A DNA stretch of 63,996 bases, filler included, from an uncultured bacterium (GTDB lineage: Bacteria > Hinthialibacterota > Hinthialibacteria > Hinthialibacterales > Hinthialibacteraceae), in the NCBI GenBank assembly GCA_964449065.1. It is 9 parts of 9 records of this genome, joined end to end, with 100 filler letters (N's around TTAATTAATTAA, not from the genome) between each part and the next. Parts side by side here need not be neighbours in the genome. Positions count along the whole stretch, not along the records: positions 30,326 to 37,651 come from CAYVAZ010000261.1; 8 more parts are not named here. One strand, written 5' to 3'. The notes under the pieces are model-generated. The model was not told the origin of the DNA. It did not search any database and saw nothing but the letters and a program-made list of their open reading frames with translations. The translations under genes and the position numbers were made by a program. Positions 23,453 through 61,810 of the stretch are shown one piece after another; the first letter of the stretch is position 1; the number at the start of each line of letters is the position of its first letter.

Positions 23453-26400
23453 ATGAAAATCAAATCTTACATCCACATACTATGCATTTGCACTTTGTTT
23501 GCCGGCGGTTCATTAATGTCGTTTGGTATTGATGCCGATTCGCTGGTCGAATTTATAGAAGAATTTCAGGATGGCAATGGTCCAGATCTCAATGGCGACG
23601 GGATTTCCAATCATCTGGATTTAATACGATTTATTCAACTTTGGAAATCGACTGAAGAAAACCTTGTTCCAAATCCTCCTGTGATTACTGTCTTTCCAGA
23701 AATGACACGCGAACTGACCATTCCCTTTATAGGAACAGCACAACCGAATCAAGTGATCGAAATTTCGGGTGGTGCGGAATCGGTTCGAACAATCGTAGAT
23801 TCATCGGGCCAATTTCAATCCAGTGTAAACTTGTTGCCCAATCGAGTGAATCGGCTATTTGTAACCTCAATCAATGCTGTGGGTACCCGAAGTTCTCCCG
23901 TATCAATCCATATAATTCACGATTCACAACCCCCATTTTTGTATACTGATGAACCGTTTGATCAACAAGAATTAATTCAAGATAAAGTCACGGTTACTGG
24001 GCGTGTCAGTGATATGATCAGTGGTTTTATGGGATTAAATGTGACCGTTAACGGTTTGCAAGCAGACGTTGAAGAGGGCATCGGGACCAATGGAACGTTT
24101 GCTCTTGCGGATGTTCCTTTAGCAATGGGTGAAAACCCTATCCGTGTAGTAGCCACCGATGAATTAGGCAATGTATCCACTCAAGACATATCCGTATTTC
24201 GAAGAGAACCCGTTGGCCCTCATATTCAGATCGTATCTGGAAACAATCAATCCGGCTCAATAATGTCTTTTTTGCCGGAACCGATAGTGGTTCGTGTTGT
24301 AAACGGAGATGGGACACCATTCGCCGATAAAGTGGTAAATCTGGAAGTGAGCCGAAGCAATGGCAGGGTATCTTCTGATGGTCCCACAGCGGTATCTCAA
24401 AACGGCATGATGCTGCAGTTGCGCACTAACAATGAGGGGTTGGCCCAAGCGTATTGGCGGTTGGGCATGGATGCCGGCTGTGGAAACAACCGGATTTCTA
24501 TTACAAGTAATGGAATTGATGGTACGGCATTTTTTTGTGCTTCAGCCATGCCTGGACAAGCCAAACAGATCAACATCGGTACCGGAAACAATCAAAGAGT
24601 GGAAACCAACGCAATCGCCCCGGAACCATTAGAAGTGTGGGTTAGTGATGGATGTAATGGAATCGAATCGGTACCTGTTACATTCTCCGTTTTACGGGGA
24701 ACCGGTCAGGTAAATGGTGAAGATCAAGTCACAATTAACACTTCATCGACTGGTCATGCTCAGGTCGTGTTTCAGACAGGTCCAACTTCAGGGAACAATT
24801 TAGTAGTAGCGAATTTTGAAGGGAACCAAGGATCTCCAGCTCAGTTTGTCATTTTGGGATTGGATCGCTCGGATAACCCCACTTCTTTATCGGATGTCGT
24901 GCTCGACAATTCCGGATCCCCTATTGCAGGGGCTTTATGCAAGTTGGAAATGTTTGGGGAAACCGTGGCAGAAACAGTTTCCAATTTACAAGGACAATTC
25001 TTGTTTACCGATATTCCAGACGGTCCTGCCCATTTACTGGTAGACGGCTTGCAAGCAACAGCCGTTGGTGGACAAACCATTCCACAAGGAAGTTACCCCT
25101 CATTGGGATATGATCTAATCATCGTGCCTAATGCAGAAAATCGTTTGCCGCAATCGGTTCTCTTGCCTCCGCTAAATGCAGAAAATGCGGTTGTGTTTGA
25201 TAACACTGAAGACGTTGAATTAACGGTTGATGGAATTGAGGGATTGATGATGAAGGTGAGTGCCGGTTCTATGACCCTGCCTGACGGTTCTGTGCCTTCT
25301 GAAGACAATCCCGTCATTATTGCGTTAAATCAGGTACATTTTGATGATATTCCCATGCCGATGCCGGACGGAGCAGCCCCTCCGTTTGCTTGGACTTTAC
25401 AACCGAGCGGCGCTACATTTGACCCGCCCATTCAAATTGAGTACCCGAATATGAGCGGCCTTCCGCCCGGTTCGTTATCCTATTTTCTCAGTTTCAATCA
25501 CGATACAGAAAACTTTGAGATTGTTGCGACAGGCTCCGTGAATGACGAAGGTTCTACAATCACTACCGATCCAGGCGCAGGACTGAACGTAGCCGGTTGG
25601 GGCTGCAACTGCCCTCCCTATGCCGTAACCGGAATGTGTGAAGGAAATGCGGTTCCTCCCATCCCGGAAAAGAAACCCAGTAACCTGCCGGAAGGAACGC
25701 CGGAGGAACAAGAACCTGTATACAATTGTCCGCCATCGCCCAGTGATGTGGGTTGTCCGGAAAATGATCCCTGTAAGCCGCCTGATTCTGTACAAGACCC
25801 TGTTTATTTGCATTCCGGTGAATATTACCTTGAAGTTGAAGATTTGCGCATCAAGGGGCGGGGAATGGATTTTGTCTGGTCACGGAAATACCGATCTCAA
25901 CTCGGCCCCAACACCGCGATGGGAAGCGGCTGGGATTTTTCTTACAACCTGTTTTTGCTGCCGGAAGAAGGCAACATCGTCGTTTGTGACGGTAACTCCA
26001 GACGGGATCTGTACAGACCGCAGGAAGATGGCACTTGGTGCCGGGAAGAATTTTTCCGCTCGATCGTCGAAAACCCCGATGGTTCGTTAACCATGCTGCA
26101 TGAAGATCAAAAGCAGTGGAACTTTCATGCATTTGACGGTTCGGCGATGGCCGGAAAAATCGAAAGCATTGTTGACCGCAACGGCAATACCATTTCGTTC
26201 GCGTACGAAGATCAGGGCCGACTGATGACCGTCACGGATACATTAGACCGTGAGATTGAAATCGCCTACAACCCAGACGGCTTTATCGAAGCGGTTGTAG
26301 ATTATACAGGACGCGCGGTTGTTTATGACTACTATCAAGACGGAGACAGCAACGGCGGTTTTGGTGATCTGAAATCGGTTAGGTCTCCTACCGTAACCGG

Positions 26401-29400
26401 TACCCCCAATGGTAATGACTTTTCTGAAGGAAAGACGATCACTTATACCTATACAACTGGATTCGATGACGAACAACTCAATCACAATCTATTAACCGTG
26501 ACTGACGGCCGCCGCAACGACTCTAACGATCCTACCTTTGGCGAGGGACCGTACATCCAAAACATTTATTCGGACGAAACCGATCCCAATGCAATCCTCT
26601 ATGACCGTGTCGTGCGCCAGGTTTGGGGCGGCGGTATCGTAGATATCGCCTATGCGGAAGTGGAACCAACCGAAGAAAATGGATTCGCTGATATCAAAGC
26701 CATCGTAAACGACCGGGTCGGAAATGTGGAAGAATATTTTTACGACCGGCGTAACCGAAATGTGATCACGCGTGAATTTACGGGACGCGCTCTTCCGGAT
26801 CAACCCACAACGGAAACCGAAAACCGGCCTTCAAGTCCTCTCCGCACCGATGATCCGGCGTTTTTTGAAACCAGTTATATCTGGAACGAAGAATCACTTC
26901 TTCGAGCCACAATCCATCCCCGCGGCAACACGACCGTGAATACCTACGAATCCGATATTAATCCGGACGCGCCGCAGCGAATGCGCGGCAATTTGGTTGA
27001 GCGGCTTCGGTTTGCTCAAACTACATCCGATCCGAACGGGTTTTCAAGCGATCAACAAGTGATAAAAGAAGAATTTGAATATGATACCGACTTTTTTACC
27101 GGCGCCTGCTGCGGATTCAACTTCGTTACGCGCCATGTGGACGGGCGCGGCAACGAAACGCTGCATGATTACGATGAACGCGGCAACCGTATCCGATCAC
27201 AACATCGCATAACCTCGATCGTTGAAGAGTTTGAGTACAACCAATTCGGTCAACTCACGGCCCACATTCTGCCGGATAACGGAAGCAGCCACCGCCGCCG
27301 GGATGAATATACCTACTACGAATCCGGTCCACAGCGCGGGTATCTCAATGAAGAAATCATGGATGCCGGTGGATTCTCCCTTACCACAGTCTATGAATAT
27401 GACTTAGTCGGCAACGTGATTCGCCAAATTGACCCGCGGGGGAACGATACCCAATACATCGTCAATGAACTCGATCAAGTTGTGCGCGAAATCTCCCGCG
27501 AAGTGGAGGCAGGAAGCGGCATCCGCTATGAAAAAGACTTCTTTTATGATGCCAACAACAATCTATCTCGTCTTGATATTCAAAACGTGAATGAAGATGG
27601 AGAAATACAGGACAACACGCATTTCACAAATACCTATGAATATGACATCTTAAATTATGTAACCCGTTCGACGGAAGAAGTTTCTTCGGATCATTTGATC
27701 GTCACCGAATATGAATATGACTTGAATCGTAACCAAACCCTGGTTCGCTATGGCGAAGCCACGAATGAAAATCAGCCGGAAAATGTTGTGGTAAAACGCT
27801 ATGATGAAAGAGATCTCCTGTTTCAGGAAATCCGGGCGCCGGGGCATGAAGATCAATCTACCACACAATACGACTACGACAACAACCGCAACCCGATAAC
27901 TGTGAGTGTCGGGTTGGAAAATACCCCGCGGATTCACCGCTATGTTTACGACGGCTTTGAACGGCTCGTCCAAACGGTTGATCCAATGGGAAATGTATCG
28001 ACAACGGTTTATGACGCGAATCACAATAAACTGCGCACCCGCGTGGAAGGGGAACTGAATGACAGACCGGGAAGTGACGAAAATTTACGATTGCGGGAAA
28101 ACCGCTATGTATATGATCCGATGGACCGCTTGATCCGGGCCGATCAAGCGTTCTTTGATTCGGTGACTCTGTTGCAATTGGAAGACGGTCAATCCACCAC
28201 GGAAACCATTTGGAGCGACAACTCGCAAGTGCTGCGGGTCACCAACGACAACAACCACAACACGCTGCTGGCATATGACACCGCGAACCGCAACAGCATC
28301 GTGAACGACGCCAAGCAAAACCAAATCGTGTATGAATACGACAAAAACTCCAACGTGATAGCGATGCTGGAAATCGAAAAATCCGATCTGGGAAATCCCG
28401 ATGAAGAATTTTTAACGCAGTATGGCTACGACGGCCTCGACCGCTTGATCGAAACGATAGACAGTTCCGGCAATGTGATGGAGTACCGCTACGATTCACG
28501 CGACAACCAAACCGTGATGATCGACGCTTTGCGTCCCGATCCCAGCACGGATTCCGGCAACATTACCCGTTATGAGTATGACGGCATCAACCGATTAATC
28601 TCGACCTCCAAACTATTGACGGATGATGGAACCGGTACAGGCAATGAAACCGGCCGTATCGTTACCACCCAAACATGGGATGATACATCAAGATTGATCG
28701 CGCAAACGGATGATAACGGCAACATCACACAATATGCTTACGATCCATTGAACCGGCAAACCGCCACAATCTATGCCGACGGTACAGCGATGACGTATGA
28801 GTATGATGTGCATGATAACCGGATTCAAATGACAGACGCCAACGGCAGTGTTTCGATCAGCACGTATGATTTACTGAACCGCGTGATTGAAACCAACATC
28901 ACACCTGCCGCCAATGTATCGGACGACACCACCTTTGAGCGCTACCAATACGATGGGCTTTCACGTTTGGTAATGGCGGAAGACGATGATTCTGTTGTGC
29001 AGCGGCGTTACGATTCGCTTGACAATGTGGTGTTGGAAACACTGAATGATGAATCAACCATTTCGGTGTATGACGGGGTTGGCAACCTTCTGACCTGCGT
29101 GTATCCCAGCGGACGTGCCATCCAATGCACTTATGATGAGTTGGAGCGCAAGCAAACCGTAACCGATGCCGACGGTCTGATTGCCACGTACCACTATACC
29201 GGCCCCAACCGGGTAGAGCGTTGCGAGCTGGGTAACGGAACGGTAACCGATATCGCGTATGACGGTATTCAGGGTATCGCGAATCCCGAAGGTGATTTTG
29301 GCGTCAAACAAAAAATCCGAACTACTCACACCCGCGAGTCCGACGGTTTTATGATTGATGATCGCATCTACACCTGGGATCCCATGCAGAACAAAACTTC

Positions 29401-30225
29401 CCGCGTGGATGTAGTAGAAAATGGGCGAGGCTTGGCGCATCAATACACGTATGACTCCATCTACCGCATGAACCGTTCGGTGCAAAGCGATGACACGCGG
29501 GTATTGGATACCATCGAGTATGACTTGGATGGCGCCGGCAACCGCAACGAAATCGCGGGTGGGGATAACCCCGGTACCTATACCTTGGATGAAACGCTCC
29601 CCGAACCGGCGGACTTCCAGGTCAACCAATACACCACTGCCCCCAGGGAACAGCGCACACACGATGCCAATGGCAACCTTACGTCCATCAATGTCGAGTC
29701 GTCTGGAAACATGATTTTTGTATATGACTACCGCAACCAAATGGTTGCCTATGCGGATGAACAAGGCGGAGTGACCGCGGAATATGGCTATGACGCACTG
29801 GGACGCCGCATATCCCGCACGGTTGATGGTGAGACCACTCTCTACTTTTACACCAATGACCGCGTCTGCGAAGAACAGGACGGCGGCAACGCGGTAGAGG
29901 CCACGTATGTTTACGGGCGCTACATCGATGAAGTCATCACCATGCAGCGCAATGAAATGGATTACTTCTACCACACGGATGATCTTTACAACGTGATGAA
30001 GGTTACAGATTTAGAAGGCAATATTGCCGAAGGCTATGAATACGGCGATTACGGCCAACTGCAAATCTTGGATGCTAACGGGAATCCTTTAACAGAATCC
30101 GCAATCGGCAACCCCTACAACTTCACCGGACGGCGCTACGACCCCGAAACCGGATTCTACTACTACCGCACCCGCTACCTCGACCCCATCGCCGGCCGCT
30201 TCACCACCCGCGACACCATCGGCAT
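23453..30225 (+). CDS. Large secreted RHS/YD-repeat protein (signal peptide, dockerin/EF-hand-like motif, Ig-like domains, DUF6531-like, RHS core); C-terminus lost at contig end
   Basis: DPVYLHSGEY, many YD repeats, NPYNFTGRRYDPETGFYYYRTRYLDP..GRFTTRDTIG. Confidence 0.93.
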
Positions 30226-31357: not shown

Positions 31358-32995
31358 ATGAAAAACTCGATGAAAAAGTTGTTTTTTTTGATGACAATTG
31401 TTTTGCTGTCAATAGGGTCTTTGAGCGCCCAAGAAAAATGGGAAATGGAATGGGCGGATCGTTCAGATGTCAATCCTTTGAATTTAAATGAAGTTGGAGA
31501 ACGATCCTATATGCCTTATGTTCTCTACAACGAAGAGTGGCCTGAAGAATCTCGATTTCGGATGTGGTTCGATTATGCCAGCATCAATGGAATTGGGTAT
31601 GCGGAATCTGCCGATGGGATCACTTGGATCAATCAAGTTGCCGTTAATGGCTTGAATGAAAGAGGACCGCAATCGGCGGGGCGGGCTGTAGTATTGTATG
31701 AATCCTCATGGGAAAATCCATTTCGTCTATATTATTATGGAAATCCTGAAGGGGTCTTTGAAGTACGAGTAGCGGAAAGTATCGATGGAATCAATTTTGT
31801 AAATGATCAAACAGCGATTTCCAGTGAAGGATCAGAACTTGGATCGTTTCCGGATGGTCATGCCGTGCTACATTTGCCCGGCCAAGATGAACCCTTCCGT
31901 ATGTATTACCGTGCCGGTGATGGGATCATGGTCGCCACTTCCATCGATGGATACGATTTCATCGATTTTTCTATCGCTCCTCTTCCTTCTGCGATGCAAC
32001 CCACCTGTGTCATTTCGATCGGTCAAAACGACTATCGGATGTGGGCGTTTGAAAATAATACAGAAATTGAATATTTGGTGTCTTCTGATGGATTCAATTG
32101 GGAACCATGGGGACAAGTCGAGAATGTAGGAAAACTTGGAGAAGCGGGCTCGTGGAATGAAAATCGTAACTATTACGGATCAGTGGTTTATCTTGGTAAT
32201 GGGAATTTCATGATGTGGCGTGGTGGTAGGAATGACAACACTGGCTTGTATCGCACAGGCGTGGCCGAAGGTTTTGATGCTCATCTGACACAAATCGATA
32301 TTGGCAATTGGGATTTCACCAGTGAATTGGCAGACTATCAAACTGAGGGATGGGAAGGATTCGGATCCAACGAAAATGGTGTTTTGACGCAGAATTCGGA
32401 TGGAACAGTAACGATTGCGGATGACCGGGAAGACGCCAATTTTTACATGGTTCACGATACTTCATGGGTGGTTCCCTATACCGTTGAAGCTCGATTTCGG
32501 ATTGATCAAGAAGGTGGAAACGATGGCAATGGACCACATTGCACCATTGCATCTTTAATCAACGATGAATTCCATCCGAGGTCGGAAACTTGGCAGCCGA
32601 GTTTTGCTCAAGACCGTTTCGGAGGATGGAATTTGAATGGTGATGACCCAATCGCGGAAGCCGATTTGACTGAATTTAATACCTTCACAGTGGTTTGTCG
32701 GTTCAATGAAGCAGCGCGATACGAACTTTTGCTTGATCCCTCCAATGGTAATGCCAATACTTTGCAATCTGAATATGACGTTTATATCAATCGTGATTTC
32801 AGTGAACCCGCTATCACATTTCATGGGACTGGTTGGGCTGGGTGGTCCGAAGTGGACATTGATGGACGATTAGACATTGGCTGGCCCAATCCCAGTACGG
32901 GGATTATGACAGTAGACTGGGTTCGCTGGGGAAGCGGTGTAATACTTGACAACAATGATCTAGGCGCTTCAGTTGTGAATTGGTCTGTTTACTAG
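31358..32995 (+). CDS. Secreted beta-propeller (GH43/32-like) plus beta-sandwich protein ending ASVVNWSVY
   Basis: AAGGAG RBS, signal peptide, repeated (Y/V)AESxDGxx(W/F) blades. Confidence 0.75.
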   Translation: MKNSMKKLFFLMTIVLLSIGSLSAQEKWEMEWADRSDVNPLNLNEVGERSYMPYVLYNEEWPEESRFRMWFDYASINGIGYAESADGITWINQVAVNGLNERGPQSAGRAVVLYESSWENPFRLYYYGNPEGVFEVRVAESIDGINFVNDQTAISSEGSELGSFPDGHAVLHLPGQDEPFRMYYRAGDGIMVATSIDGYDFIDFSIAPLPSAMQPTCVISIGQNDYRMWAFENNTEIEYLVSSDGFNWEPWGQVENVGKLGEAGSWNENRNYYGSVVYLGNGNFMMWRGGRNDNTGLYRTGVAEGFDAHLTQIDIGNWDFTSELADYQTEGWEGFGSNENGVLTQNSDGTVTIADDREDANFYMVHDTSWVVPYTVEARFRIDQEGGNDGNGPHCTIASLINDEFHPRSETWQPSFAQDRFGGWNLNGDDPIAEADLTEFNTFTVVCRFNEAARYELLLDPSNGNANTLQSEYDVYINRDFSEPAITFHGTGWAGWSEVDIDGRLDIGWPNPSTGIMTVDWVRWGSGVILDNNDLGASVVNWSVY

Positions 32996-45354: not shown

Positions 45355-46914
45355 ATGAACTATTTTAAACCTTACAGTGGTCCGTGGACCAAAGAAGAAG
45401 CCGCACACCTCTTGCGCCGTGCCGGATTTGGCGGCCGCCCCGAAGAAATTCAATCGCTGGCGGATATGAGCATCGATGAAGCGGTTTCCAGCGTTTTGGA
45501 TTACCCCTCAGTCGATCAGCCTTATGAAGAACGTATCAATACTATACGCCGCCGCGGAAATTATTTGGGGGTTCTTTTTACCAATGATTTGAAGGACTTG
45601 CAATCGTGGTGGATTTACCGGATGCAATATGCCACCTTTCCGATGCAAGAGCAGTTAACCCTTTTTTGGCATGACCATTTCGTATCAGATTGGCCGACCG
45701 TACGCGGGGAGATACCGCAACAGGTGAACAATGGAAATGACGGCTCATTGGTCAACCAGCAGTGCAATCGGGGTACGTTGGGTGAAGATAAACAACGGCG
45801 GGAGAAAATCACGGTTCGTATTTTGCAGGAACAGAACCATTTGTTTCGTGAAGAAGGATTTAAAGCGTTTGGTGATTTGCTGCTAAAAGTAACCCGCAAC
45901 CCGGCCATGCTGATTTATTTGGATAACCACCTCAATACCAAAACCCGTCCCCAAGAAAATTATGCACGTGAATTGATGGAATTATTTTCGATGGGAGTGG
46001 GGAATTATTCCGAAGAGGATGTGCGGGAAGTGGCGCGCGCGTTAACCGGAGAAGGGCTTAATCGACGCTGCGATCAAGATTTTCCATTTTCGCACCGGTT
46101 TATACGCGGTTTGCATGATCAAGGAGAGAAGACCGTATTCGGTTCTACATTCAATGACTGGCGGATTAGCGGTGAAGACACCGAAACCGTGATCAATTTG
46201 GTTTTGGAGCGCGTCAGCAAAAGCGGGATTACTCCCGCGCACGACCGTCTTCCGGCTACCGCGGTTTATATGACTTGGAAGTTATTGAATTGGTTTGTGG
46301 GTGAAGAAATCCCGATTGATCATCCGGCGGTGGAGGAGTTGGCGGAACCGTTTTATGAACATCAGCCCAACGGCTACCGGTATGATGTTCGGGAACTGCT
46401 GCGCACGGTATTGACTTCCGACTTTTTCTACTCGGATGAATTTCGTTGGAAGATGTATAAGCATCCGGCCGATTATATCGTGATGGCGTTGCGTAATTTG
46501 GATGTGGAAGAGATTAGTTATCACGACGGCGCGGCCATGATGATGCGTGAGATGGGGATGAGTTTGTTTGAGCCGCCCAATGTCGCGGGATGGAATCACG
46601 GAAAATCATGGATTAACTCGGGCAATATTTTGGGACGGTTTAATTACGCGGATCATTTTTCCACACGACGGATTATAAGCAACCGTTATTGTGATGATTT
46701 GATTGCAAACGGGTTTATCGAAAATGAAGAAGATTTTGATGGTATGATTGAATATCACCGTGAGCGGTTATTGCAAACATCGCTTTTGGATCAAGAGTAT
46801 TCGATTCTACGGAACTTTTTACGCCGGATTGTCAGCGGCCGGGATATTTATTACCGCAGAATTCGCGGTTTGGTGTATTTGATGCTGACAATGCCGAAAT
46901 ATCAACTTAAGTAG
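45355..46914 (+). CDS. DUF1800 family protein
   Basis: AAHLLRRAGFG, LTLFWHDHF, PAMLIYLDN, ENYARELMELF, PPNVAGW. Confidence 0.93.
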   Translation: MNYFKPYSGPWTKEEAAHLLRRAGFGGRPEEIQSLADMSIDEAVSSVLDYPSVDQPYEERINTIRRRGNYLGVLFTNDLKDLQSWWIYRMQYATFPMQEQLTLFWHDHFVSDWPTVRGEIPQQVNNGNDGSLVNQQCNRGTLGEDKQRREKITVRILQEQNHLFREEGFKAFGDLLLKVTRNPAMLIYLDNHLNTKTRPQENYARELMELFSMGVGNYSEEDVREVARALTGEGLNRRCDQDFPFSHRFIRGLHDQGEKTVFGSTFNDWRISGEDTETVINLVLERVSKSGITPAHDRLPATAVYMTWKLLNWFVGEEIPIDHPAVEELAEPFYEHQPNGYRYDVRELLRTVLTSDFFYSDEFRWKMYKHPADYIVMALRNLDVEEISYHDGAAMMMREMGMSLFEPPNVAGWNHGKSWINSGNILGRFNYADHFSTRRIISNRYCDDLIANGFIENEEDFDGMIEYHRERLLQTSLLDQEYSILRNFLRRIVSGRDIYYRRIRGLVYLMLTMPKYQLK

Positions 46915-46923
46915 AGGAAACCG

Positions 46924-48264
46924 ATGAACATGAACCGCCGATCTTTTTTTCAAACCGGTTTATCCGGTTTGGCCTATTACTCCACCGTTTCCACGACGCC
47001 GTTATGGATCAGTAAAAGTGCCGGCGCCTTGAGTTCGCTGGACGGTGATGACGACCGTATTTTGGTAATCTTGCAGCACGGTGGCGGGCTTGATGGATTG
47101 AATACAGTGATTCCACGCACCGACCCTGTGTATTATGACGACCGTACCCGGCCGAGTATTCATGTAAGAAAAGGGACGGAAATCAACCTGGATGGCGAGA
47201 ACGGGCTGCATCCCAATTTGTTTAACCTGGCGGATTGGTATCAAAAGGGAAAGATGGCGGTGGTGCAGAATGTGGGCTACCAAAACCCGAACCAGTCTCA
47301 TTTTACTTCGACGGATATTTATGAACATGCCATGAATCCGTTTGAGGGTGTGGATAAACGCGGTTGGGTGGCGCGGTATTACGATAACGCGTGTGATGGT
47401 GTGGATCCCGGCGTATTTGATATTGTCGCGGCTGGCAAGAAGAAGATTCCGGATGCCATAAACGGTTCGGCGGTATTAAACCCGCCCGCGATTGGGGATC
47501 CGAGAGATTATTCCTTTAACTTTGATGAAGATGCCAACGTGCGTTTGCGGGCGATGACCGCGCTCAACCAGATGGAGCGGGTCAGCCCGGAAATTGACTT
47601 TTTGCAGCGCAGTTATAACACAACGGAAGTGTCTGTGCAGGATATCCGCAAGGCGGACAATTTGCCCACGCTGGTCCCGCAGAACCAATATCCCAATAAC
47701 GATTTTGGACGTGGTTTGAAGCTGGTATCTAAGATTATCCGCTCCGGCTTTAAGACCAAAGTGTTTTATGTGAGCCAGACCGGGTATGACACACACGCCA
47801 ATCAAGTGAATTCAAATTCGGGAAACCAATTTGGCAGGCACCCGCAATTGTTGGGGCAGTTTGACAGCGCGGTGAACGCGTTTTTGCGCGAGATGGAATT
47901 CACGGGCAATCTTGAACGGGTTTTAGTATTGACCTTTTCGGAATTCGGCCGCCGAGTGCGGGAGAATGGCAGCAATGGGACCGACCACGGCGCGGCGAAC
48001 TGTTTGTTCGCGTTTGGCGGACAGGTGCAGGGAGGCATTTACGGCGGGCAGCCGGATTTGGAAGACCTGCATAAAGGCAATTTGAAGTATAAGATCGATT
48101 TCCGCTCGGTGTACGCGCAGGTGATCGAGAACTGGCTGGGCAGTGAAGCGGCCCCGATATTGGGTGAAGAGGATTACAACACGATTTTGAAGAAAGAGAT
48201 GGCGGAGATTCCCTTCTTGCCGCAGGTTGAGAGCACCGCGGTGCCGCAGTGGAGTTTGTATTGA
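46924..48264 (+). CDS. DUF1501 family protein, Tat signal, ending TAVPQWSLY
   Basis: NRRSFF, GGLDGLNTV, NQSHF, YDTHANQ, SEFGRR..GTDHG, DFRSVY. Confidence 0.93.
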   Translation: MNMNRRSFFQTGLSGLAYYSTVSTTPLWISKSAGALSSLDGDDDRILVILQHGGGLDGLNTVIPRTDPVYYDDRTRPSIHVRKGTEINLDGENGLHPNLFNLADWYQKGKMAVVQNVGYQNPNQSHFTSTDIYEHAMNPFEGVDKRGWVARYYDNACDGVDPGVFDIVAAGKKKIPDAINGSAVLNPPAIGDPRDYSFNFDEDANVRLRAMTALNQMERVSPEIDFLQRSYNTTEVSVQDIRKADNLPTLVPQNQYPNNDFGRGLKLVSKIIRSGFKTKVFYVSQTGYDTHANQVNSNSGNQFGRHPQLLGQFDSAVNAFLREMEFTGNLERVLVLTFSEFGRRVRENGSNGTDHGAANCLFAFGGQVQGGIYGGQPDLEDLHKGNLKYKIDFRSVYAQVIENWLGSEAAPILGEEDYNTILKKEMAEIPFLPQVESTAVPQWSLY

Positions 48265-51265: not shown

Positions 51266-52153
51266 TCACGGTCTTGGTGTTGGTGTGGGTTGAATGAACC
51301 AGAATTCTTTGAGGATGAGTAAATCCAAACCGTCAATGAAGCCGTCGCTGTTGATATCGGCGGGTTTGATGAATCCCGGCGGCACTTCCGGGAAGGGTGT
51401 GGCTGTGGCGGTGGCGCTGGGGGTGGGCGTGTTTGTTGGCGGGCCTTCCGGTGTAGGGGAGGGGGGCGGCGTGGGTGTGAAGGTGGGTGTGTTTGAAGGG
51501 GTTGGTGTGGGTGTGCCTTCAATTGCATGAACGATGTTGAGCATATCAACGATAAGCCAGGGGGCGTCGGTTTCGCGGGAGTTGTTTTGTTCGGTTGTGG
51601 AATGGGAGAAAATGAAGGTGTTGTCCTGGAGAAAATATTCAAATTGCGATTCGGTTTGGATGGTGGGGATGGGAGTGGCGCTGCGCGCGGGAATGCCGAG
51701 ATTGACACGCTGACCGGTTTCGAGGTGATACATACGCAGCACGCCGGTTGAGAGGGTGCCGTCGGAATTGATGTCATTGCCACCTTGGGTTTCGTTGACC
51801 AAATAGATGAAGTATTTTTCGTCTTTGGAGATTAGCAGCGATTGCGGGACAGCCGATTCGCGGGTATCGCGCAGGACACGGTTGATGCCGTCCCAAACGA
51901 ACAACCTCCGGTTTGTTTCGAAGGAAGTTAAATCGGAAAAGACGGCGTAGTGACGGGTGAAGACTTCGAGGCGCATGTTTTCTACCTGCGCTATTTCAAC
52001 ATCAAAGCGGCGTAAGGGGGTAGGAACGCGGATGGTGTCGGCGTCATTGATATCGAGTACCGTAGGGCGGGGCCGGATGTTTTGGGCATTGGAAGAAACA
52101 ACAAAGTTTAATGATGAAATGATGACAAGAATAGGAACAAGGTTTTTGATCAT
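51266..52153 (-). CDS. Secreted protein with Pro/Thr linker and C-terminal dockerin/EF-hand-like motif
   Basis: Signal peptide from ATG 52153, TPTPTP repeats, ADINSDGFIDGLDLLILKEFW. Confidence 0.8.
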   Translation of the reverse strand: MIKNLVPILVIISSLNFVVSSNAQNIRPRPTVLDINDADTIRVPTPLRRFDVEIAQVENMRLEVFTRHYAVFSDLTSFETNRRLFVWDGINRVLRDTRESAVPQSLLISKDEKYFIYLVNETQGGNDINSDGTLSTGVLRMYHLETGQRVNLGIPARSATPIPTIQTESQFEYFLQDNTFIFSHSTTEQNNSRETDAPWLIVDMLNIVHAIEGTPTPTPSNTPTFTPTPPPSPTPEGPPTNTPTPSATATATPFPEVPPGFIKPADINSDGFIDGLDLLILKEFWFIQPTPTPRP

Positions 52154-52294
52154 GAAAAAAACTCCTGAGCGTGAGTGGTGGGTCAGAACGGCATGACCTA
52201 CTTTACGGGCTGAACAGTATATAGCAGCAGGCTGGAAGCCGACGTTCCCCACACAGTTGAAACGGATACTTTTAATTGCACATTGTATTACTAT

Positions 52295-59340: not shown

Positions 59341-59862
59341 AAGGATTTAGTTGCTTTGCATAATTTTCCCGGTAACTTCTTCCGCTTTGAGTTCTTACCG
59401 GCAGTGGGAGTTCTTCATTCTAACGGACGTTACGCAAAATTCTATACGGTAGGTATTGTTGCGAGCTTTACATCCGTTTTGATAGTCTGTAAATAAGAAG
59501 AAATGCAACAAAATATGGAGGCAGTTATGCCCGCATAAAAACGTTGAGAATTTTGAAATGCATTACAATAACCCCCTTACGTAAGGGGGTGGAGCCGTAG
59601 GCTCCGGGGGATTTTGTGTTGTTGAAAGCGTGCTTCGATCCCCCCTTAATAAGCTACTCTCCGTAGCAAATCATCTTGAGTCAAAGATGTCCCTGAATGA
59701 TTTAAACCGCGAATAACGACTTTGCCGATTTCAGTCCATTGGATTTCAACCCCTATATCGTCNNNNNNNNNNNNNNNNNNNNNNNNNNNNNNNNNNNNNN
59801 NNNNNNTTAATTAATTAANNNNNNNNNNNNNNNNNNNNNNNNNNNNNNNNNNNNNNNNNNNN

Positions 59863-61810
59863 ACGCGGCGGCTTCTTCGGTTTGGAGGATGCCGAGGCGG
59901 ATTTCCGCGGAGCGCAGGATTTCTGTTAGCGTTTCTTTGTAGGACATGCCGATGAGGCCGGTCATTTTGGTCAAGTGGCCGTCCCAGCACCAGCCGGGGT
60001 TGGGGTTTACTTCCAACAGTTTGGGATTGCCTTCGCCATCAAGCCGCCAGTCGTAGCGGCTGTAATCCCAGCAGTGCAGACGTTCGAACAGGCGTATGCA
60101 GCTGGTCATGATGATTTTTTCGGTCTCTTCGGGCAATTCAGCGGGGATGGATTTCAGCACACTGTAGGGGCCATCGAGTTCCCATTTGGCTTCGTAACCG
60201 CAGATGCGGGGCAGTTCCGGCGGGAGTTGGGAGTAGTCTTCTTCGATGATGGGCAGTTCACGCCAAGTGCCGGGGGGGTTGCCGAGTATCCCCACGCTGA
60301 GATCTTTTCCGGTTAAGAATTCTTCGACCAAGACGGGTTTATCATAGCCGATTTTGGAGCGGATTTCGGTGATGGCGCTGCTGAGTTCTTCTACGTTGTT
60401 ACACAAACTGCGGACGGTAATGCCGAAGCTGGAATCACCGAAGTTGGGTTTTACCAATACCGGAAAGCGGAGGGGGATTTCCATAATCATGTCTTCCGGT
60501 TTAATGAGCCAAGCCGAGGGGACAGGGATTTCCATTTCCTGCGCCAAGCCGCGGGTGAGGGATTTGTCATAACAGATGGCCAAGCACTGCGGCCCGCCGC
60601 CGGTGTAGGGGATGCCGAGTACATCCAGCAGTGCCGGGACGTGCAGTTCGTGCACGGCGGAGTTATTAAAGCCTTCATCACACAGGTTGAGGACATAATC
60701 GATCCCGCCGCGTTTGTTGGTCAGATCGCGAACGAGGGTATCGTGGTTATCGAGATAGGAAAACTCGTAGCCATCGATTTCGTTCAAGGCATTTTTGAGG
60801 CGTTGGATGGTATCGATGTCATCGGCATCGAACACGCTGCTGGGTTTGATGATATCGGATTTGCGCGGGTCCCCTAAAATCACCGTCACCTTTTTGGCGC
60901 CTTTGCGTTTGGGGATTTTGGTCCACTCTTTTTTGACGGCGGCCAGCATGATGATGCGTTTTTCCATCATGCCCAAATCCTGGTGTTTGTTGGTATCCGG
61001 AGCGAGTTCGCCAACCGGACCGATAGCACTGAAGCCGGCTTCTTTGAGCAGTTCACCCAAGCTTTCGGGAGTGTAGAGCCGTTCGGCGTAGAATTGGTCG
61101 GAGAGGATCCCCTCGTTGATATCGGTGATGACTTCGCGGGAAATCAAACGCTGTTTGTCCAGCGACAAAGACCGTTCGCGGCAGACAAAGAGGTCTTTAT
61201 CGATCCATTCCCAGGTGCGGGGTTGGAATTTTTGGCGGAGGTAATCGCCGTCGGCAACATCTATAATGACTTTGCCATTGGGTTTGAGGACGCGGAAGAT
61301 TTCTTTAAAGATTTTCAAGTCATCCTGCGCGGTTTCGAAATAGCCCAGGCTGTTGCCCAGCAGTGTAACGAAATCAAACGTATCGTTGGCGTAGGGCAGT
61401 TTGCGGGCATCGCCTTCACGGTATTTGACTTTGAGGCCCTGTTTTTTCACGGTGGAACGGGCGCGCTGCACGAGATAGCGTGAGCGGTCAAAGCCTTCGA
61501 CGTGAGCAAAGCCGCGGCGTGCCAGTTCGGTGGAGTGGCGGCCGTGTCCGCAACAGAGATCGAGGATGCTGTGGTTCTGCTTCCATCCGGTAATTTGGGT
61601 GAAGTAGTCGATCTCTTGCCGGGTGATGGAATCGTCGCCGACGACATCGCCGTCGGTTTTCATGTAGAGCGAGTTAAAGATGTACTTCCACCAATCTTCT
61701 TTAACGTGTTCTTCGAGATTGGTGACATAGCCAAGACTTTTGGGCTGTTGCGCAAGAGGTTTTTCATCCTTTTGGGCAACCGCACTTTCTGTTGTTTTTG
61801 TGGAAATCAT
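59863..61810 (-). CDS. Class I SAM methyltransferase fused to a D-Ala-D-Ala-ligase-like ATP-grasp domain; stop beyond contig edge
   Basis: LDLCCGHGRH, GDARKLP; NLCDEG, YTGGGP..DK, VKPNFGDSS, VEEFL, LLEVNPNPG. Confidence 0.9.

Follow-up and report, generated by a model that had tools for sequence, protein, structure and literature searches.

A nine-residue C-terminal tag on exported proteins of two bacterial phyla, with PorU-like C25 peptidases as its candidate reader

Why should two unrelated exported proteins, encoded on different contigs, end in nearly the same nine residues? The question is raised by a window of 63,996 nucleotides, that is, by the whole stretch of DNA analysed here, which joins nine parts of a single genome (G000, a 5.2-Mb bin of 515 contigs, 86.7% complete, in which no 16S gene is present). 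One protein with a predicted Sec signal peptide, on contig C261, and another with a twin-arginine signal, on contig C263, there stop directly after similar tails (Table 1). This likeness had been described in a first-pass annotation, which read the tail as a lineage-specific sorting tag on exported proteins, and that reading is supported by the present analysis. This C-terminal tag is real and abundant, occurs in two phyla and has apparently not been described before; very probably it is a targeting signal of some kind.

The Sec-type cargo protein is likely a BNR/sialidase-type propeller combined with a lectin-like domain. It has no Pfam or NCBIfam match, however, and the earlier label of beta-propeller stands solely upon Atlas neighbours at 0.90, which are BNR/sialidase propellers. 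The Tat-type cargo is a DUF1501 protein in which the tag tryptophan is invariant across 25 aligned orthologues, these having been selected mostly for possession of the tail. As the AlphaFold model of this protein is poor over half of its length, disorder of the tail is only weakly indicated. The DUF1800 protein encoded directly upstream is possibly a Tat ‘hitchhiker’ partner of the tagged DUF1501 protein. No other ORF scored in the window reaches 9 bits, the next best scores being 6.5 and 5.0.

Table 1. Tagged proteins, tag copies and neighbouring gene in the window (positions along the window), and candidate enzymes elsewhere in the same genome (G000)
Feature	Position	Strand	Remarks
Exported cargo of 545 aa (Sec signal peptide predicted)	31358..32995	+	ends in tag
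Tag copy 1, ASVVNWSVY + stop codon	32966..32995	+	21.9 bits; G000:C261:2641-2670
DUF1800 gene (PF08811), directly upstream of tagged DUF1501	45355..46914	+	no signal peptide by heuristic; untagged
DUF1501 cargo, 446 aa, twin-arginine (Tat) signal	46924..48264	+	PF07394, E 2.4e-26; ends in tag
Tag copy 2, TAVPQWSLY + stop codon	48235..48264	+	22.1 bits; G000:C263:3068-3097
Type A C25 enzyme, 1,809 aa	G000 C28:13611-19040		normal-GC contig
Type B C25 enzyme (on C421), at least 1,265 aa	G000		normal-GC contig

Genome-wide, the tail was sought starting from a seed pattern (W-x-hydrophobic-aromatic-stop), which matched 55 of 21,362 ORFs, the 46 long ones then serving as seeds for an iterated nine-column matrix, trained on G000 itself and allowing zero to three trailing residues. 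At a threshold of 9 bits, 84 of 4,019 stop-terminated ORFs of at least 100 aa match, versus 0.6 expected at pseudo-termini, with two or three of the 84 judged by eye to be chance matches. It is dozens of proteins, that is, which bear the tag, rather than the few that the first-pass annotation had envisaged as an outcome against it. A scan of the genome using the single DUF1501 protein as query, by comparison, returned no match. Out of sample, i.e., in a Sumerlaeota genome (G106) of which 62% was covered, the same matrix matches 15 of 1,582 ORFs versus 0.8 expected, and by eye 13 of these 15 have clear signal peptides, one is unclear and one is false.

The motif may be written as [ST]-x-V-x-x-W-x-[LVI]-[YFH], followed by zero or one residue and then the stop. 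Among the 84 tails, column 1 consists mainly of S31/T28/V12/A10, column 2 of mostly small residues (S23/D12/A10/G7/N7/P6) and column 3 of V64/I14. Column 4 is variable, column 5 has E21/N17/D15, column 6 has W72/F10, column 7 has S27/E25/M12, column 8 has L45/V14/I14 and column 9 has Y50/F12/H8; the strongest columns thus are the hydrophobic ones, V, W, L and Y. The motif as originally proposed has in consequence to be loosened: its tail does recur across the genome, but the residue next to the S/T varies, F may stand in for W, and an extra polar residue follows the ninth column in 19 of 84 tails, the tag being flush with the stop in 63.

As to the proteins that bear it, signal peptides are predicted for 74 of the 84, versus 1,367 of 3,795 (p=1.6e-22, by a crude rule that over-calls), which is the enrichment that had been proposed as a check on the sorting reading. 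The 83 tagged proteins scoring at least 11 bits fall into 56 BLAST clusters, Gly/Pro/acidic linkers precede the tag, and close paralogues within G000 differ in that one possesses the tail and the other does not. The stop codon follows within zero to one residue in 82 of 84, and an internal helix of any kind is seen in just 1 of 84; the description of a tail lacking both transmembrane helix and basic end therefore holds. A lipobox occurs in 1 of 74 tagged cargo proteins versus 68 of 956 (p=0.054, a borderline scarcity). The Pfam domains found on tagged cargo, i.e., CBM9, CBM96, LamG, FG-GAP, fasciclin, kelch, S8, heparinase, M23 and endonuclease I, are typical of surface proteins, and 20 of the 40 G000 cargo proteins scanned have no Pfam domain. 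On the tagged proteins scanned, no Pfam or NCBIfam model covers the tail, an existing sorting-domain model having been among the earlier worries.

Two side observations concern the termini of other proteins. Seven large extracellular-type G000 proteins (on C384, C43, C55, C162, C207, C90 and C206), none of them tagged, share other C-terminal motifs, five having an NPxSGAV[FYN]-like motif 15–20 residues before the end and the other two F[DK]T[VD]G[SA]VEF; possibly these represent a second sorting signal or instead a terminal propeller strand. In addition, G000 C162:7828-9841 and L158:4471-6455 are tandem paralogues, one tagged and the other stopping just before the tag, an arrangement conserved in G020. 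The pair may form a heterodimer of which one subunit bears the tag.

How widely is the tag distributed? Within its own phylum, i.e., 35 genomes for which the label Hinthialibacterota (OLB16) was inferred because two G000 proteins have their named homologues in Ca. Hinthialibacter, stop-anchored codon patterns match 926 times versus 59 in a reversed control. The pattern exceeds control in all 35, the weakest having 4 versus 2. A related pattern in 75 Sumerlaeota genomes matches 727 times versus 127 in control, with control exceeded by at least three in 50 of the 75, and one group within this phylum displays a variant with a polar residue before the Y and a final R. A further 62 genomes (17 of the Hydrogenedentota group and 45 from approximately a dozen other phyla) supply 35 matches versus 57 in control, whereas six genomes of the two tagged phyla gave 12–40 each. 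The supposition of lineage specificity is thus retained as to restricted distribution but not as to a single phylum, two being spanned, and the tag may also occur in phyla beyond those searched.

The tag occupies a place that other modules can occupy. Among 119 DUF1501 homologues, the tag (at least 8 bits) is the terminus of 27 and a dockerin that of 30, others possessing hydrophobic tails, Gly-Cys tails or nothing. Of 80 DUF1501 genome loci, 19, which are from Bacteroidota-related taxa, have instead, a few residues past the same last strand, a type IX secretion system (T9SS)-type C-terminal domain (CTD). At the DUF1501 C-terminus, that is, the tag interchanges with other surface-targeting modules. 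These T9SS-type CTDs often start with TSVxD, and in the linkers of the 19 CTD-bearing orthologues the first five columns of the tag score at least 5 bits in 10 versus 7% of background windows, nine of those ten being near-identical relatives. Consideration was given to the tag being a truncated first strand of such a CTD, but the full nine-column matrix reaches at most 6.3 bits in the CTD-bearing orthologues, the resemblance being limited to the first five columns.

The nearest known relation is with this same T9SS CTD (PF18962) along with PorU (NF033707, PDB 6ZA2) of Bacteroidota. Like the tag, the CTD is C-terminal on diverse Sec and Tat cargo, is without a membrane anchor, follows a T/S-small-V/I start within the linker and is found at the same place in DUF1501 orthologues, and the tagged phyla possess PorU-fold C25 enzymes with a His-Cys dyad. 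The T9SS CTD, however, is a folded domain of 40–82 residues with motifs B, D and E according to the available text of one source (PMC11969387), whereas the tag has nine residues and none of these motifs, so that the earlier description of it as much shorter was apt. No match to PF18962 or to an NCBIfam CTD was found on 42 tagged G000 proteins, and CTD cargo is nearly absent from the tagged phyla (0–2 matches per genome over 44 genomes, versus 29–82 in three controls). SprA (TIGR04189) scores above cut-off in none of 45 genomes from the tagged phyla versus 14 of 14 controls, and no PorV-like barrel that tracks the tag was found in these phyla. Because of these results with CTD, SprA and PorV the tag is not viewed as belonging to a T9SS, even though it may be CTD/PorU-like in its working. 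What T9SS CTD matches were obtained in G000 are on contigs of 33–39% GC, versus 47% overall, and were set aside as contamination; G000 contigs below 40% GC (C224, C342, C415 and others) total approximately 75 kb, and three low-GC contigs carrying T9SS-CTD proteins or a gingipain-like C25 look like Bacteroidota contamination.

Other systems are less close. LPXTG, PEP-CTERM, GlyGly-CTERM and MYXO-CTERM share with the tag a short C-terminal signature on many unrelated exported proteins along with one putative enzyme. The tag, unlike these tripartite signals, has no transmembrane helix or basic tail and no NCBIfam match, and the enzyme proposed to act on it, a C25 peptidase, is soluble. Dockerin type I (PF00404), the partner of cohesin, takes the place of the tag in Hydrogenedentota-type DUF1501 orthologues, but is a folded, duplicated calcium-binding domain of approximately 60 residues, which the tag is not; PF00404 has no match on the tagged proteins scanned, and the G000 dockerin proteins examined are untagged. 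The beta-signal recognized by BAM belongs to barrels ending in an aromatic residue, whereas 19 of 84 tags end in an extra polar residue and no barrel families are found among the tagged proteins scanned (42 from G000 and 13 from G106). In literature on Sumerlaeota/BRC1 sorting signals and on PorU outside of Bacteroidota the tag is not described, supplements and subscription journals falling beyond that scope such that prior mention is possible. The main text of the Hinthialibacterota description contains neither ‘C-terminal’ nor ‘secretion’ (PMC9324843), and the available text of a myxosortase preprint contains no PorU, C25, dockerin, Sumerlae or type IX (10.1101/2023.06.07.544157).

What might read such a tag? 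The first-pass annotation had implied unknown machinery, and for this a candidate now can be named, PorU-like C25 peptidases, based on co-occurrence and resemblance. C25 peptidases are present in 35 of 35 own-phylum genomes, 73 of 75 from Sumerlaeota and 29 of 51 from the tag-less Hydrogenedentota, such enzymes being widespread and common also where the tag is absent. The best PDB match of the type A enzyme is PorU, both by sequence (E 8.7e-20) and by predicted fold (E 1.6e-32 over 991 columns), though the two G000 enzymes match the PorU model NF033707 at 236 and 184 bits, below its cut-off of 420. Alignments show both catalytic residues, His and Cys, in 35 of 36 rows (one being a fragment) and in 12 of 12. 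An Arg after the catalytic Cys is conserved in PorU, according to the available text of PMC4560394; type A and Sumerlaeota type B lack it, and in type B of the own phylum it is shifted by one position in 5 of 5 rows. The enzymes of the tagged phyla also differ from PorU in being 1,250–1,850 aa in length, in having CARDB domains and in having no CTD of their own. A third G000 C25 gene (C342) lies on a low-GC contig and was rejected as contamination.

Phylogenetically, a quick C25 tree places 54 of 66 rows within a clade consisting of the two tagged phyla only (SH-aLRT 95), this tree having just 5 Hydrogenedentota rows and no Bacteroidota PorU. A type B profile built from both tagged phyla matches at E <1e-60 in 7 of 7 own-phylum genomes and in 16 of 22 Sumerlaeota genomes, the latter picked to include tag-poor ones. 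Over 30 Hydrogenedentota genomes its best E is 2e-32, and in five T9SS-bearing genomes plus one acidobacterium values range from 1e-46 to 1e-67. Six Sumerlaeota genomes have no strong match, and in five of these the tag count is near control. Four tag-rich genomes (93–99% complete) hold type A only, and type A for this reason is the lead candidate in the tag’s own phylum. There are counter-examples, with G061 having two well-formed tags and no C25 match, and G055, G110 and G112 having the enzyme along with tag counts that, by these patterns, are near control. Possession by two phyla of both tag and enzyme may reflect a single inherited event.

Neither gene order nor the enzymes themselves supply a further connection. 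Among the matches listed in 20 neighbourhoods there are no cargo operons that include the enzyme gene, and 0 of 185 peptidase homologues end in the tag. Internal copies of the tag in the peptidases were considered as well, but the two high scores are both unconserved in alignments. Prediction of a complex between type A residues 249–1075 and the C-terminal 32 residues of the tagged DUF1501 protein scored 0.00 twice, a result that was counted neither way. The link between enzyme and tag is one of co-occurrence and resemblance only, and the enzyme a plausible but unproven reader. As observations on these neighbourhoods, glycosyltransferase or O-antigen-ligase genes adjoin the enzyme gene in four, possibly by chance. 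In G000, G011, G014, G028 and G106 (L152, L154, L160, L162 and L167) the gene immediately downstream of type A encodes a TPR protein, and in G028 genes for an O-antigen ligase and a GT4 enzyme come next on that strand.

The best explanation, to which we would give about an even chance, is that the tail is a minimal ‘sortase’ signal, cut after its first residue (S/T) by a PorU-like C25 peptidase with the protein then joined to an amine of a surface glycan. Cargo presumably would cross the inner membrane by Sec or Tat and would reach the surface via a type II secretion system (T2SS). The W, L and Y might then fit into a pocket on the enzyme or on an adaptor, thereby replacing both the folded CTD of the T9SS and the PorV shuttle. 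Cleavage would follow the S/T, and the acyl-enzyme would be resolved onto LPS or another glycolipid. By way of precedent, the available text of PMC11969387 has the Prevotella T9SS CTD cut at PT/GI, with a small residue usual at +1 and Ile at +2, and that of PMC4560394 has PorU as a C25 enzyme with a Cys/His dyad which links cargo to glycan, after Thr in several cargo. Tag columns 1–3 resemble this T/S-small-I/V cleavage motif, though in sequence only, and Pro at position 2 in 6 of 84 tags is an awkward residue to find right after the proposed cut site. A more specific version, in which the T2SS delivers folded, tagged cargo and a PorU-like transpeptidase reads the nine-residue peptide and ligates the protein to LPS, all with no T9SS involved, is put forward tentatively, as somewhat less probable than not.

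Might the tag instead be kept? That is, it could remain uncleaved and dock into a surface receptor, whether S-layer, scaffold or barrel, as dockerin does into cohesin. This is unlikely but deserving of serious attention given that dockerin sits at the place of the tag in those 30 of 119 DUF1501 homologues, that hydrophobic V, W, L and Y are what a docking peptide might be expected to present, and that G000 encodes both dockerin and cohesin proteins (e.g., on C207), one cohesin protein being common to G106. The difficulty is in finding a receptor. The sole barrel candidate, a PorV/FadL-like protein of G000 (C165; 55.6 bits versus the PorV cut-off of 90), was rejected on its distribution, as a search that might overlook more divergent barrels detected the family in 7 of 12 own-phylum genomes and in 0 of 32 from Sumerlaeota. 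The 111 G000-G106 reciprocal best hits with predicted signal peptides, of which 31 are annotated (62% of G106 being covered), contain no other obvious shared receptor, the annotated set consisting of type A, general envelope proteins, T2SS parts, M16, M4, L,D-transpeptidases and the cohesin protein. Nor does docking explain the conserved S/T-small-V start.

An alternative that we regard as slightly less likely still has the tag as an export address for the T2SS or for a periplasmic chaperone, with cargo then released or held by other means. Secretins (seven matches), GspG, GspK and GspD are indeed present in G000 and common to G106, the TPR gene following type A in several genomes could be a part of such a route, and presence of the tag on both Sec and Tat proteins fits with export of folded proteins. 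The known signals of the T2SS, however, are conformational rather than short linear tails, which this tag is, and many large extracellular-type G000 proteins are untagged. PDZ pockets, moreover, bind a terminal carboxylate, and to this the 19 of 84 tags that run on by one residue are ill-suited. It seems very improbable indeed that the tail has no sorting role at all and serves instead to cap the structure or to signal degradation or stability, or is what remains of a CTD since lost: though no partner has been demonstrated and disorder of the tail is weakly supported by the poor DUF1501 model, a tail appended to 56 unrelated clusters after Gly/Pro/acidic linkers, present in one close paralogue and absent from another, and retained across two phyla is not what such roles would lead one to expect.

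Whatever reads it, the tag provides an immediate route to listing the likely surface proteome of two little-studied phyla. If a PorU-like enzyme does so, then a role is explained for conserved C25 peptidases in bacteria without a T9SS, and the enzyme would be a sortase working without folded CTD, PorV or SprA. Were T9SS-free display to be true, then the tag would be the shortest known Gram-negative sortase signal, PorU-type enzymes would make up a family whose members act as stand-alone sortases on different short tags, and a new protein-ligation tool is possible. The enzyme–tag question is answerable with one recombinant enzyme plus short peptides, i.e., with no culturing.

Certain additional features may be recorded. 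The pilin-like repertoire of G000 is unusually large, 113 ORFs having a prepilin-like G/A-F-T-L-I-E motif at their start, and an 881-aa dockerin protein (C165:7191-11029; L092) adjoins the PorV/FadL-like barrel. Within the window, 51266-52252 is an untagged ORF of 328 aa that contains a Pro/Thr linker and matches dockerin weakly, falling just short of the Pfam cut-off, 23453-30225 encodes a large RHS-repeat protein with Ig-like domains that is truncated by a contig end, and 59807-61810, the first bases of which overlap a contig junction, is an ORF with methyltransferase and D-Ala-D-Ala-ligase-like ATP-grasp domains.
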